Notes: a model not told the origin generated them from the sequence alone. 64,000 bases of DNA from Omnitrophica WOR_2 bacterium RIFCSPHIGHO2_02_FULL_50_17 (GCA_001805645.1 MHGQ01000032.1:64267-128266), one strand, 5' to 3'. Shown: positions 52,504 to 58,785, counted from the first letter of the stretch. Made by a program: numbers and translations.

Positions 52504-53628
52504 CTATAAGACTGTGTTTATCATCGGCTCATCGTGAAATTCCACCAGAATCCGCTTCATAATCTTGCCGAAAGGTGTTTGCTTAAGATGGAGATTATCC
52601 CAAAAATCCTCTGTTGTTAAATCCATTGCCTCGGGCGATGAAAAATCATAGCAGGGGTATCCGAAAGCATTCATAGCTGAAGGAATGGTCTTCCGGAATT
52701 TCTCAAAAAATCCCGCCTGCGGCTGCACACTGGTCAAGGCCGAATAAAAATCTCCCCGAAAAGGCAGCAACACGCCCACGACTTTTATGTTTTTAGTACG
52801 ACAAAATTCCAATAAACCCTTGAAATTGTTCAGGGCGTTAGGATCAATATCAGCTGCGGCCGTGAACCGATACTGATCCCTGGCAAGCCACTGCCTCCAT
52901 TCGGAAATTTCCCTGACATTATCTGCCTTATGGGAATCCGGATAATGAAAACTGCCATCGGATCGAAATCCCCCCTGCGCCATCCGGGCGTTTAATCCTA
53001 TTCCGGTCTCTTGCGGGGCGGGAAACAAATATTCAAACCATGATCCTTTGTCGGCAATGAACATGTCATAACTTTTCGTCCTTTGAGCAACGAACTGATA
53101 CGCGGCGTAGAACCCGGCCAATACAGGGATGCGCTCCAGGGAACTTTTCATCCGGCTTTTCCAGTCCTGTCGGTTGGCCGGATAATTAGGGTTAAACAAC
53201 CACGAATCGATTCCCAGGACAATCCCCCCGGGCATTGCTTCCCGGTCCAGTGATTTTAAGATTTTCAACATCCCAGCGATCTCGCGGCTTGTGGAAGCAT
53301 CGACCCCGGCATTATAAAACTTCGCACCAGCGATATGTTTTTGTTCCATGGGCATAATGCGCGAGGTCCCCAATGCGATTATCTCGGGCTTGCTGGATTG
53401 AACGCCATAAATTTTATAAATGTCCCCCACATTGAAATATCGCGGGGAATAATATAATTCCTCATTCAATTGCTGCCGCCTGACAACATCCTCATAAGGC
53501 AGCGTCTCTCCCAACCTCAAGAAAACAAATTCAAAAACGCTGACACACAACATGAACAATGCAACGGTCACTAACCCAAAGATTTTAACGTTCCGGACCT
53601 CAGAATCGGAAATAGATAAACGGCGCAT
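52504..53628 (-). CDS. Membrane-anchored SGNH-fold protein, DltD/AlgJ/PatB-like partner of the adjacent MBOAT
   Basis: Single N-terminal TM helix, then IIALGTSRIM (GxS block I) and FWDNLHLK (DxxH block V); position immediately downstream of the MBOAT gene. Confidence 0.5.
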   Translation of the reverse strand: MRRLSISDSEVRNVKIFGLVTVALFMLCVSVFEFVFLRLGETLPYEDVVRRQQLNEELYYSPRYFNVGDIYKIYGVQSSKPEIIALGTSRIMPMEQKHIAGAKFYNAGVDASTSREIAGMLKILKSLDREAMPGGIVLGIDSWLFNPNYPANRQDWKSRMKSSLERIPVLAGFYAAYQFVAQRTKSYDMFIADKGSWFEYLFPAPQETGIGLNARMAQGGFRSDGSFHYPDSHKADNVREISEWRQWLARDQYRFTAAADIDPNALNNFKGLLEFCRTKNIKVVGVLLPFRGDFYSALTSVQPQAGFFEKFRKTIPSAMNAFGYPCYDFSSPEAMDLTTEDFWDNLHLKQTPFGKIMKRILVEFHDEPMINTVL

Positions 53629-55009
53629 ATTTCTTAACTCCCAGAAAAATAAGCAAATTTACCATAACCCCATAATAAAATTGTTGGGATAACCCGCGAT
53701 TTGTGTTTATCGATATTGCCGGAGCAAACCCGGGACTTTTTGCCAGCAATGCTACGGCCGCAATAAGAGAAAGTATTTCAATCGCTGAATATGCTTGAAA
53801 TAGAATGCTTAAATCAACCGGACCTGTCAGATGGGTCAGAATATAAACAGCGTCTTTCATAGAATCCGCCCGGAAGAAGACAAAAGATAACGCGATCATG
53901 TTAAAAGTAACAAAGATGCGCCATTTCCTGACCCATCCAGCCGGCACACGCGATCGTTCCCACAGTTCATTTCTCTTTTTTAACGTTAAAATAGATGTCC
54001 CCATATAAGCGCCGTGGATCAAACCAAAAATGACAAACCCCCACGCCGGCCCATGCCAGAGCCCGCATATCGCGAAAGTGATGAGTACGGCCCCGACAAC
54101 TCCCCATGCCCCAAAATTGCGGAACTGGCTTAACAAAGGAGTGAATAAATAATCCCGCAGCCATGCTGAAAACGTTATGTGCCACTTTCGCCAGAATTCC
54201 TGGATATTCGTGGCCAAATAAGGGGCCTGAAAATTCTCGCTTAATTCGATCCCGAATATTTTCCCCAGGCCGCGGGCAATATCGGTATATCCAGAGAAAT
54301 CAAAATAGATCTGAAAAGTAAAAATGTAAGACGCCAACACCAAAACCAGGCCCGAAAAATTTACAACATCGGAGAAAATCTCATTAACAAAAAAAGCCAA
54401 ACGGTCAGCAACAACCATTTTCTTCACCAGACCAACGATTATCAGCTGGACCCCCTCTGCTATTTTATTGTAATTAAAAACATAGCCCCTTTTAAGCTGG
54501 GGGATGAGCTGGCTGGCCCGCTCAATAGGCCCCTGCAACAACTTGGGGAAGAAGCTCAAATATAACAAAAAATATCCCAAATGTTTTTCCGGCTGGATTT
54601 TCTCCAGATAAATATCAAACAAATAAGCAAGGGATTGGAAGATATAAAAAGAAATTCCTATAGGCATAATGACATGTATGGGGCTCAAAGGTTCTTTCAA
54701 GAAATAATTCACATTCATGACAATGAACTCAGCGTATTTGAAATATACCAACGTGGCAACATGCAGAAAGATCGCCCCCCATAAATAATATATTCTCCGT
54801 GATGAGCGCACCGATCTCATCGTGATACCAAAGAAAAAACTTACTAACGAAACAGAAAATAATAACAGCGCGCTCTTAACACCAAAAAAACTATAAAAGA
54901 AATAGGAAGCCGTCAAAAGCACGGTCCGCTTCCACTTGCCAGGAGCGGCTAAAAAGACAAAGAAAGCAGTAATGGCAAAGACAAAATATCCAAATGTATT
55001 AAAAAGCAT
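53600..55009 (-). CDS. MBOAT-family membrane-bound O-acyltransferase (DltB/AlgI/PatA-like)
   Basis: Polytopic; conserved WRKWHITFSAWLRDYLF and GLWHG histidine motifs. Confidence 0.85.
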   Translation of the reverse strand: MLFNTFGYFVFAITAFFVFLAAPGKWKRTVLLTASYFFYSFFGVKSALLLFSVSLVSFFFGITMRSVRSSRRIYYLWGAIFLHVATLVYFKYAEFIVMNVNYFLKEPLSPIHVIMPIGISFYIFQSLAYLFDIYLEKIQPEKHLGYFLLYLSFFPKLLQGPIERASQLIPQLKRGYVFNYNKIAEGVQLIIVGLVKKMVVADRLAFFVNEIFSDVVNFSGLVLVLASYIFTFQIYFDFSGYTDIARGLGKIFGIELSENFQAPYLATNIQEFWRKWHITFSAWLRDYLFTPLLSQFRNFGAWGVVGAVLITFAICGLWHGPAWGFVIFGLIHGAYMGTSILTLKKRNELWERSRVPAGWVRKWRIFVTFNMIALSFVFFRADSMKDAVYILTHLTGPVDLSILFQAYSAIEILSLIAAVALLAKSPGFAPAISINTNRGLSQQFYYGVMVNLLIFLGVKKYAPFIYFRF

Positions 55010-58193: not shown

Positions 58194-58785
58194 ATTGATA
58201 TTCCCTGTCGCGATTTTCGTTCCGGCACTGCGGTTTCTTATGAGACTCGCACCGCGCCAACTCCTCGACTAAATTGATTTTGTTTTTTGCCGCTACTCGA
58301 TCATATTCAATATGTCCCACACAAATCAAAGCAACCCCATCGATGTATTCGGCCGGAACTTGATTCGCGCATAAAATCCGACAATTTTCAAAATTCCCTT
58401 CCTTAAGCACTATTTCAACCAAATAGACCAGATCCGACTTGCCTAATATATAAAACGTCCTTTCCCCATCAAAATACAATTCCTCAATAATCCTGGCGAT
58501 CTGATCTTTGATCAAACCTATGGCATCAATGGTTTTAAGCATGTGTTTCTTAAACTTTTTTTCTCTCTCGGCAAGGCCTTCCGGGGTCAGAACATAAACG
58601 AATTTTCGTTTACCGAGTTGCTGAATATGGACGTGTCCCTTTGAGACAAGCCTTTTCAGCAAAAGGTTAATCATGCCCAAGGAGAGATTCATCAAATTCG
58701 AAAAATCCCTTTGATTGGCCCCTTTTTCGGAGCCAATGATGTTAATAAGCTCGAATTCTTTCTGTTCCATTATTTCTCCCGACAT
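58180..58785 (-). CDS. Winged-helix (MarR/PadR-like) DNA-binding protein with C-terminal unknown domain; putative locus regulator
   Basis: N-terminal …QRDFSNLMNLSLGMINLLLKRLVSKGHVHIQQ…FVYVLTPEG wHTH pattern; overlaps the FkbH start by 14 nt. Confidence 0.45.
   Translation of the reverse strand: MSGEIMEQKEFELINIIGSEKGANQRDFSNLMNLSLGMINLLLKRLVSKGHVHIQQLGKRKFVYVLTPEGLAEREKKFKKHMLKTIDAIGLIKDQIARIIEELYFDGERTFYILGKSDLVYLVEIVLKEGNFENCRILCANQVPAEYIDGVALICVGHIEYDRVAAKNKINLVEELARCESHKKPQCRNENRDREYQYGKI

Follow-up and report, generated by a model that had tools for sequence, protein, structure and literature searches.

A candidate carrier-protein-dependent glycan acylation operon with an FkbH-like loader in an Omnitrophica genome

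Among the substrates of bacterial MBOAT/SGNH protein pairs are alginate, cellulose, peptidoglycan and teichoic acids, and the pairs have effects on antibiotic resistance, immune evasion and the formation of biofilms. To our knowledge, the cytoplasmic donor that serves these pairs is known only for the Dlt system. A stretch of 64,000 nucleotides from the Omnitrophica WOR_2 bacterium RIFCSPHIGHO2_02_FULL_50_17 (MHGQ01000032.1:64267-128266), hereafter the window, raises the question of whether an MBOAT may also be supplied by a carrier protein charged by an enzyme of another kind. The original prediction described seven contiguous minus-strand genes, and the ORF listing returned exactly these at positions 52504-58785: a wHTH regulator, an FkbH-like protein, a stand-alone acyl carrier protein (ACP), a MaoC dehydratase, a short-chain dehydrogenase/reductase (SDR), an MBOAT and an SGNH partner. 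Judged from sequence, the operon may serve to O-acylate a surface glycan outside the cytoplasm from a carrier protein, with a Dlt-like build and a different carrier-charging enzyme, a reading to which we assign a probability of roughly 0.6.

The loader, its carrier and the tailoring enzymes

The FkbH-like gene (56409-58193) encodes a protein of 594 aa with three domains: an N-terminal SGNH-like domain named NEX (residues ~1-225) that has no conserved serine, a HAD-IIIC phosphatase domain (~230-385) and a C-terminal acyltransferase domain of the GNAT fold, the SGNH-like, HAD and GNAT folds being supported by structure evidence. Profile searches gave 103 bits for FkbH_N, 303.7 bits for the TIGR01686 FkbH model (cut-off 146.65) and 69.1 bits for the TIGR01681 HAD-IIIC model (cut-off 35.75), so that both TIGRFAM checks proposed beforehand came out above cut-off. 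Residues D235, D237, T239, S285, K319, D341, D342 and C505 are invariant among 14 diverse homologues, and a search at E <= 1e-10 returned 7283 FkbH-like clusters at 90% identity. C505 is presumably, as in OzmB, the site of the glyceryl-S-enzyme intermediate. A Bacillus thuringiensis plasmid carries an NRPS/PKS cluster whose FkbH homologue (359 aa) aligns with residues 230-581 at 29% identity, and the DxDxT, SKNN, DD, RxNQxN and LMSCRVxSRGV motifs are kept between the two proteins. The assignment as an FkbH-like HAD-IIIC enzyme with a GNAT tail is upheld by these data, since the HAD-IIIC motifs and the cysteine of the MSCRV motif are all kept and the tail adopts a GNAT fold.

The ACP gene (56155-56430) encodes 91 aa when read from the ATG at 56430 that is used in metagenome gene calls, the longest ORF extending to 56457. 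The protein scores 29.8 bits with PP-binding PF00550 (cut-off 20.8), as had been anticipated, and falls below the cut-off of all AcpP and DltC equivalog models (DltC NF003464, 19.7 bits vs 68). The serine of its WDSL motif, the phosphopantetheine attachment site, is kept in at least 95% of 78 ACP homologues, which settles the conservation of this residue. Both enzymes encoded downstream also proved to be what the original prediction had named them. The gene at 55737-56150 (137 aa) specifies a MaoC-type dehydratase of the hot-dog, hydratase-2 type (MaoC_dehydratas PF01575, 43.1 bits, cut-off 27) with a GDxNPLH motif, the D-NP-H residues of which are kept in 20 homologues; that at 55015-55773 (252 aa) specifies a FabG-like SDR ketoreductase (adh_short, 98.4 bits, and FabG-like NCBIfam matches) carrying GGSGGIG and YxxxK motifs.

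Bryostatin BryA is an example of a lactate-type loading module with the order FkbH-DH-KR-ACP. Such modules hold in cis the same set of activities that the window distributes over FkbH-like protein, MaoC, SDR and ACP, and an FkbH loading module has been tabulated as yielding D-lactate-ACP (PMC7901079). The glyceryl-ACP pathways of the FkbH/OzmB/Tmn16 type, which lead to methoxymalonyl-ACP and tetronates, have in common with the window cassette the HAD-IIIC and cysteine acyltransferase core and a dedicated ACP; in them an FkbH-like enzyme and a stand-alone ACP use 1,3-bisphosphoglycerate to form glyceryl-ACP (PMC7489565; PMC8949500). The cassette differs from the polyketide pathways in the absence of a ketosynthase, of FkbI/FkbK dehydrogenases, of an FkbG-type O-methyltransferase and of any PKS/NRPS, in its stand-alone MaoC hot-dog dehydratase and stand-alone FabG-like SDR, and in the consumer of the acyl-ACP, which would be the MBOAT rather than an assembly line. 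The partners of the methoxymalonyl-ACP pathway, an acyl-CoA dehydrogenase and a 3-hydroxyacyl-CoA dehydrogenase, are absent from the cassette, the neighbours being MaoC, SDR and MBOAT.

It could be argued that the machine works as proposed on an acyl group that does not derive from glycerate, but from another acyl phosphate or acyl thioester (e.g. acetyl or a short hydroxy-acyl), which MaoC and SDR would then tailor. Since the identity to the PKS/NRPS-cluster homologue is only 29% and an extra SGNH-like N-terminal domain is present, another acyl-phosphate substrate is conceivable, and in locus L095, where a related MBOAT pair lacks an ACP, the gene directly upstream encodes an acetate kinase, a hint that acyl phosphates may matter in this family. 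This alternative is nevertheless improbable: the TIGR01686 score is twice the cut-off, all FkbH catalytic motifs including the phosphatase aspartates of the HAD domain are invariant, and a phosphatase domain would be pointless for acetyl phosphate or CoA thioesters. Moreover, tetronate and polyketide pathways are also reported to contain FkbH-like proteins with N-terminal extensions (PMC12304814), and the PKS loading modules that form lactate have a counterpart in FkbH with its neighbouring dehydratase and reductase (PMC7901079).

The MBOAT, its partner and the Dlt system

The MBOAT gene (53600-55009) encodes a membrane acyltransferase of 469 aa that, in agreement with its first assignment, exceeds the cut-off of PF03062 (70.2 bits, cut-off 27). 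Its best PDB matches are the DltB structures 6BUG/8JEM (E 8.5e-28), with which both WH histidines align, and the WH histidine motifs are kept across 75 homologues. The score with the TIGR04091 LTA_dltB model is 163 bits at a cut-off of 375, and by sequence the protein is a relative of DltB and not its equivalog. The partner gene (52504-53628), which overlaps the MBOAT gene by 29 nt, encodes a 374-aa protein that has a single transmembrane helix at its N-terminus and whose catalytic domain is predicted to be extracytoplasmic. Searched by sequence, the partner matched no PDB chain, and its DltD-like SGNH fold came from structure prediction, in which S89, D344 and H347, all invariant, supply a Ser-Asp-His set; the protein had been suspected of being an SGNH-fold enzyme rather than an unrelated periplasmic protein, and the predicted structure sides with that view. 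The expected similarity to Pfam DltD was indeed seen, but below threshold (E 0.007, 16.2 bits vs 22.7), and only 4 of 32 members of the partner family reach this model at E < 0.01. The family comprises ~6000 clusters at 50% identity and has no Pfam model.

DltABCD(X), which acts on the teichoic acids of Firmicutes, is the closest logic for such a set of genes, and the differences are several. The loader is the adenylating ligase DltA in the one and an FkbH-like HAD/GNAT enzyme in the other, the cargo is D-alanine as against a predicted C3 hydroxy-acid, and the cassette offers an optional tailoring of the cargo on the carrier by MaoC and SDR; the hosts of the FkbH-ACP-MBOAT-SGNH set are mostly diderm, with the genes lying in polysaccharide loci. 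The ACP, MBOAT and partner of the window all score below the Dlt equivalog cut-offs. An AMP-binding domain of the DltA type is absent from the seven cassette proteins and from the other window ORFs scanned. The cassette holds no small DltX-like gene, as neighbouring genes either overlap (14-37 nt) or lie 4-7 nt apart and leave no room for another gene. The O-acetylation systems AlgI-AlgJ/AlgX, PatA-PatB and WssH-WssI (alginate, peptidoglycan and cellulose, respectively) likewise pair an MBOAT with an SGNH-like protein, and to them the window adds an adjacent ACP and a loader. We know of no dedicated carrier or loader gene in these three systems, nor of a genetically specified cytoplasmic acetyl donor.

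Conservation of the cassette and its glycan setting

An identical gene string is present on 9 metagenome contigs, and the full six-gene cassette recurs with complete synteny in an Omnitrophota metagenome-assembled genome (L007) and in L097; promoter-like and terminator-like sites in the cassette region did not exceed the shuffled expectation. The cassette is thus a genuine conserved operon and not a chance arrangement. FkbH homologues at 39-57% identity define a set of 80 genome loci, which represent 12 phyla or more. The FkbH gene has an ACP gene within 6 kb in 77 of these loci, and 69 contain an MBOAT; iterated HMM searches place an SGNH-type partner after the MBOAT in 35 or more loci, and further ones give weak GDSL matches. 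The conserved core is FkbH-ACP-MBOAT-SGNH, and the cassette was found in at least 593 species-level genomes. The system is therefore widespread rather than peculiar to the window, and the seven-gene unit first proposed is reduced to this core, with MaoC and SDR optional. MaoC occurs in 19 of the 80 loci and SDR in 18, 15 of the latter together with MaoC, and in L015 the two are fused into a single protein; as an accessory pair they accompany the core in about one locus in four. The regulator (58180-58785; 201 aa), whose gene overlaps the FkbH gene by 14 nt, has a MarR/EPS-type N-terminal half and an uncharacterised C-terminal half; it stays below threshold with TIGR04176 MarR_EPS (49 bits, cut-off 88) and with MarR/HTH_24. 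Its homologues adjoin the cassette only in the Omnitrophota loci L007, L056 and L058, and it is lineage-specific. Cultured carriers of the cassette include Sinorhizobium meliloti (on pSymB), Chryseobacterium luteum, Flavobacterium psychrotolerans and Lachnospiraceae NK4A179.

A different explanation would be that two independent modules share the operon, an MBOAT/SGNH pair for O-acetylation of the AlgI/PatA type that draws acetyl from a donor other than an ACP, and an FkbH-ACP-MaoC-SDR set for a cytoplasmic step, e.g. the N-glyceroyl or N-lactyl decoration of a nonulosonic acid precursor, as suspected for cj1302. Each half can indeed be met alone. MBOAT-partner pairs 40-45% identical to those of the window occur without ACP or FkbH within 6-10 kb (L091, L093, L095, L096), which indicates that this type of MBOAT need not have an ACP, and FkbH-ACP without MBOAT is found beside other transferases (FabH and PglD-like in L079, WcbI-like in L090) and in L015. 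Nonulosonic-acid genes also abound in the window, which encodes 2 NeuB proteins, 5 cytidylyltransferases and one NeuC-like epimerase. ACP genes are presumably present as well in the flagellin glycosylation island of Campylobacter jejuni that contains cj1302. This FkbH-domain gene lies, like that of the window, inside a nonulosonic-acid island (PMC7099621), which in contrast to the window has no MBOAT/SGNH pair, the acyl group presumably being joined to the sugar precursor in the cytoplasm. L079 repeats the C. jejuni-like FkbH-ACP-FabH arrangement.

Against two separate modules stands the association of the genes across many phyla: FkbH, ACP and MBOAT occur together in 47 of the 51 loci whose flanks extend 4 kb or more on each side, and ACP and MBOAT are immediate neighbours (<=150 nt apart) in 42 of the 80. 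The module is accordingly paired with an MBOAT and not with PKS/NRPS genes, as the original prediction required; PKS contexts of FkbH were seen only in distant relatives (~30% identity). A match on a Ralstonia megaplasmid, considered as a polysaccharide cassette, was rejected since its FkbH domain is embedded in a PKS. In addition, NeuB is missing within 10 kb of most such loci, and the cassette encodes no candidate cytoplasmic acyl-ACP:sugar acyltransferase besides the GNAT domain of the FkbH-like protein. Finally, a member of the ACP family lies between an AMP-binding enzyme and an MBOAT in L094, where the order is AMP-binding enzyme, ACP (E 9e-29 to the window ACP), MBOAT and partner. As the trio of ACP, MBOAT and partner is there fed by a DltA-like enzyme, the loader appears exchangeable, and the view that FkbH takes the place of DltA is reinforced. 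Two modules sharing an operon are hence considered unlikely. A separate clade of ACP-linked MBOATs was not supported: in a rough neighbour-joining tree without support values, the ACP-less and AMP-binding-linked MBOATs sampled nest within the FkbH-linked diversity, as one clade sister to the group of the window.

In L097 the cassette adjoins NeuB, NeuC and cytidylyltransferase genes, while L007 has only a cytidylyltransferase homologue in its flanks. NeuB lies nearby only in the window and L097, and the idea that the cassette form with MaoC/SDR is specific to nonulosonic acids was rejected, as NeuB is found within 10 kb in none of the 80 loci, including 22 with MaoC or SDR. Downstream of the partner, outside the core, lies a gene for a 'PFTS motif' polysaccharide biosynthesis protein (50526-52496, minus strand; TIGR04417, 111.9 bits, cut-off 100), co-conserved only in L007 and the identical metagenome contigs; it is possibly a glycan enzyme of the acceptor side. 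A lipid or protein acceptor in place of a glycan, be it a lipid-linked intermediate, the anchor of a lipoglycan or a protein of the cell surface (cf. the D-alanylation of teichoic acids), seems very improbable. In its favour, different MBOATs acylate lipids, proteins and polymers.

Proposed route and its meaning

On the basis of family membership and catalytic residues, the FkbH-like enzyme would take 1,3-bisphosphoglycerate from glycolysis, the HAD domain would remove the 3-phosphate, and the glyceryl group would be held on Cys505 of the GNAT-fold domain before the phosphopantetheine arm of the neighbouring ACP takes it over. In cassettes with MaoC and SDR, about a quarter of the total including that of the window, MaoC may remove the 3-hydroxyl of glyceryl-ACP to give enol-pyruvoyl/pyruvoyl-ACP, the 2-keto group of which the FabG-like SDR would reduce, yielding lactyl-ACP. 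Synteny and homology to DltB/DltD suggest that the acyl-ACP docks with the MBOAT from the cytoplasmic side and that the MBOAT would then move the acyl group across the membrane to the SGNH partner; the latter (Ser89/Asp344/His347) would take it as an acyl-enzyme and esterify a hydroxyl on the glycan that the 60-kb nonulosonic-acid locus around the cassette produces. The most likely product in the window would be a lactyl ester on a nonulosonic-acid glycan; well-documented cases of bacterial glycans with O-lactyl esters are not known to us, which counts against a lactyl cargo. Cassettes devoid of MaoC and SDR would install glyceroyl esters.

Full-text searches of a literature library for FkbH joined with MBOAT found no paper there that combines both, in keeping with the earlier impression that the combination is undescribed. 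It is tentatively suggested, at somewhat less than even odds, that FkbH-ACP-MBOAT-SGNH represents a large, previously unrecognised class of glycan acylation systems with an acyl-ACP donor and a plug-in loader, FkbH for glycerate or lactate and an adenylating enzyme for other acids. Taken together, the window cassette would encode the donor as well as the loader for a cargo of a second kind and constitute a modular route to hydroxy-acid esters on exported polysaccharides, the predicted new modifications being O-glyceroyl and, where MaoC and SDR are present, O-lactyl groups. If such a class exists, the surface polysaccharides of many phyla would commonly bear glyceroyl and lactyl esters that alkaline work-ups readily remove and that have been overlooked, and the orphan-donor MBOATs AlgI, PatA and WssH may also draw their acyl groups from a carrier protein.

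The seven-gene cassette and its glycan island

The seven minus-strand ORFs of the original prediction were all located at their claimed positions in the ORF listing, and their domains were assigned with Pfam and NCBIfam profiles. The cassette, of which the 64-kb window holds a single copy, begins with a wHTH regulator (58180-58785, -), for which only a sub-threshold MarR_EPS match was obtained, followed by an FkbH-like protein (56409-58193, -) that matches FkbH_N and, at 303.7 bits against a cut-off of 146.65, TIGR01686. The GNAT tail proposed for this protein is real, as a C-terminal GNAT-fold domain, and had no match in the Pfam search; N-terminal extensions are known in the FkbH-like proteins of polyketide systems, where they have been proposed to aid carrier transfer (PMC12304814). 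The ACP (56155-56457, -; PP-binding), which starts at the ATG at 56430 and has 91 aa in the gene calls of identical metagenome contigs, carries a WDS(L) motif that 95% or more of 78 homologues retain. The hydratase-2 motif GDxNPLH is present in the MaoC protein (55737-56150, -; MaoC_dehydratas), as are the GGSGGIG and YxxxK motifs in the FabG-like SDR (55015-55773, -; adh_short). The MBOAT (53600-55009, -) matches the MBOAT model, scores 163 bits with LTA_dltB, well under the equivalog cut-off of 375, and aligns to the DltB structure 6BUG with an E value of 8.5e-28, both WH histidines being retained. The last gene encodes the membrane-anchored SGNH partner (52504-53628, -; 374 aa), whose DltD match is sub-threshold (E 0.007). 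Since each gene either overlaps its neighbour, by 14-37 nt, or lies 4-7 nt from it, the cassette is read as a single operon; a promoter and terminator scan of the cassette region yielded no site exceeding shuffled expectation.

The deposited protein with 100% identity to the MBOAT is from Omnitrophica WOR_2 bacterium RIFCSPHIGHO2_02_FULL_50_17, and the cassette gene string is present on nine metagenome contigs. The minus strand encodes almost all long ORFs of the window, whose GC skew stays negative along its full length, and one glycan island stretches from roughly 62.8 kb to 1.2 kb or below. This island contains CDP/dTDP-sugar-type genes, several GT2 glycosyltransferases, two NeuB paralogues, one NeuC-like epimerase and five cytidylyltransferase-domain genes, together with an ABC exporter and four radical-SAM enzymes. 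It also encodes an amidotransferase in which HisF- and HisH-like parts are fused (24165-25634), an APS kinase, an AT3 acyltransferase, a formyltransferase, a carbamoyltransferase and several methyltransferases. The cassette is therefore placed within a locus making a heavily decorated, nonulosonic-acid-containing glycan. An IS110-family transposase (6911-7939) interrupts the island.

Immediately downstream of the SGNH partner lies a 'PFTS motif' polysaccharide biosynthesis protein (50526-52496, -; TIGR04417, 111.9 bits) and, beyond it, a LIC12162-family transferase (28806-30620, -; TIGR04331, 433 bits), both families being uncharacterised; two further large ORFs (11794-13764, 656 aa; 10036-11790, 584 aa) have no Pfam match. 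One of the cytidylyltransferases, a 594-aa protein encoded at 48732-50516 (-), is a PseF-like nonulosonic-acid cytidylyltransferase (residues 13-235) fused to a D-2-hydroxyacid/phosphoglycerate dehydrogenase-like domain (283-581). Two further dehydrogenases are encoded in the same island, one a stand-alone protein of the 2-hydroxyacid type (38276-39247) and the other a member of the malate/L-lactate/sulfolactate family (40116-41183); all three could be tied to hydroxy-acid decorations.

Conservation and variant arrangements

A scan for FkbH relatives, with one genome per species, gave at least 593 loci; the best 80 of these, with 39-57% identity to the window FkbH protein, were analysed by searching the neighbouring ORFs with the window proteins. 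Their hosts belong to Omnitrophota, Acidobacteriota, Myxococcota, Verrucomicrobiota, Planctomycetota, Elusimicrobiota, Nitrospirota, Alpha-, Beta- and Gammaproteobacteria, Leptospiraceae, Bacteroidota, Ignavibacteria and Clostridia. Among these best 80, an ACP is found at 77 and an MBOAT at 69, no more than 150 nt separating the two in 42, and MaoC is present in 19, SDR in 18 and both in 15. The expectation that FkbH, ACP and MBOAT would stay together in homologous neighbourhoods was borne out, both ACP and MBOAT being present at 47 of the 51 loci with at least 4 kb of flank on each side; nor are the close homologues paired with PKS/NRPS genes, such settings belonging to distant FkbH relatives of about 30% identity. 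An iterated HMM recovered the partner family in 35 loci, mostly straight after the MBOAT, and other ORFs in that position gave weak GDSL matches. Among the loci searched, the wHTH is limited to three from Omnitrophota (L007, L056 and L058). The complete window arrangement occurs in two loci: the Omnitrophota MAG locus L007, where synteny also takes in the PFTS protein and the fused cytidylyltransferase-dehydrogenase, and L097, where FkbH-ACP-MaoC-SDR-MBOAT-partner adjoins NeuB, NeuC and cytidylyltransferase genes and the MBOAT is 53% identical to that of the window.

Several loci depart from this arrangement. In Flavobacterium psychrotolerans RB1R5 (L078:878-12972), three MBOAT genes stand in tandem, each close to a member of the SGNH-type partner family, and one FkbH-ACP-MaoC-SDR set follows downstream, a layout which suggests that a single acyl-ACP pool supplies several position-specific transferases. 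On pSymB of Sinorhizobium meliloti 1021 (L087:4039-9238; record 623238-640442) the order is MBOAT, partner, ACP, FkbH-like; here the FkbH match falls into two pieces in two overlapping ORFs, which may reflect a frameshift, other S. meliloti strains having it in one piece, and the PLSDB record of the plasmid carries no annotation over this stretch. A Nannocystis exedens MAG (L015:12007-13545) encodes MaoC and SDR as one 512-aa fusion right after FkbH-ACP, with no MBOAT within 10 kb, and this fusion argues that the two act one after the other.

In Flagellimonas meridianipacifica DSM 25027 (L079:9995-14320), FkbH-like and ACP genes are followed by a FabH-like ketosynthase III gene; the locus lacks an MBOAT but encodes a hexapeptide acetyltransferase of PglD type close by. 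The same arrangement is found in the Campylobacter flagellin glycosylation locus, where cj1302 has its own ACP and fabH genes. A Niveispirillum plasmid (L090:11820-13268) likewise carries FkbH-ACP without an MBOAT; after this pair come genes for a putative acetyltransferase of the WcbI family and for a long protein of the SDR family that matches MaoC weakly. From these two loci it follows that the acyl-ACP module can serve transferases other than MBOAT.

Exchange of the loader

The association was also examined from the side of the MBOAT, by inspecting seven homologues (40-53% identity) in their own contigs. One belongs to the full cassette of L097, one is linked to an AMP-binding gene (L094), and five are bare MBOAT-partner pairs (L091-L093, L095 and L096) that have neither ACP nor FkbH in the surrounding 6-10 kb. 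These close relatives lacking a nearby ACP are the main argument that MBOAT-partner and FkbH-ACP are independent modules that share a locus, an explanation that we consider unlikely.

Among the bare pairs, L091 has three in tandem, and some 3.4 kb downstream of the pair in L092 lies an AMP-binding gene. The pair in L095 (8737-12471), whose MBOAT is 45% identical to that of the window, sits outside any obvious polysaccharide locus, directly downstream of an acetate kinase gene, which may hint that some of these MBOATs are fed by acyl phosphates.

The reading of the window as Dlt-like logic with the loader swapped, as originally proposed, finds its strongest support in L094 (4125-8404; logan contig SRR8717395, MBOAT protein cluster named Desulfuromonas sp. 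at NCBI). In this locus an AMP-binding enzyme of 538 aa precedes a 78-aa carrier, an MBOAT and an SGNH partner; phmmer shows this carrier and the window ACP to be close homologues (E 9e-29), and the partner is recovered by the partner HMM (E 5e-32) and also matches DUF1574 weakly. The ACP-MBOAT-SGNH trio therefore occurs with either of two loaders, FkbH-like or DltA-like. In a rough neighbour-joining tree, which carries no support values, the ACP-less and AMP-linked MBOATs form one clade, which has the window group as its sister and falls inside FkbH-linked diversity.

Proposed acyl relay and comparison with known systems

From the observed gene content, motifs, folds and co-occurrence we infer a chemistry in which FkbH would take the phosphate off 1,3-bisphosphoglycerate and pass the glyceryl unit to the ACP. 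MaoC would then remove water from the 3-hydroxyacyl thioester, giving enol-pyruvoyl- or pyruvoyl-ACP, which the FabG-like SDR may reduce to lactyl-ACP. Bryostatin BryA is reportedly an example of a loading module with FkbH, DH, KR and ACP. For this set in loading modules the tabulated product is D-lactate-ACP (PMC7901079), and it is established that FkbH-like enzymes load stand-alone ACPs with a glyceryl unit from 1,3-bisphosphoglycerate (PMC7489565; PMC8949500). The acyl group would leave the ACP for the MBOAT at the cytoplasmic face, and the anchored SGNH partner, via Ser89, would hand it to a hydroxyl on the exported glycan; from cassettes without MaoC and SDR, glyceroyl esters would be expected. 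We give this relay model as a whole a probability of about 0.6, while lactyl as the acyl group is put forward tentatively, as somewhat less than an even chance.

The cassette resembles Dlt in its working logic but is not a member of that system: DltA is absent, and carrier, MBOAT and partner each score under the Dlt equivalog thresholds. It has a true FkbH-family enzyme, as methoxymalonyl and tetronate pathways do, but none of the partners of those pathways, and, unlike the AlgI, PatA and WssH systems, it encodes its own carrier and loader. The literature search, whose coverage left out most subscription journals so that an earlier description is possible, found no paper combining FkbH with MBOAT, and its sole mention of FkbH in a glycan context was the C. 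jejuni gene cj1302. The cassette is widespread and amenable to experiment, and it bears on the question of what feeds the MBOATs of bacterial glycans.
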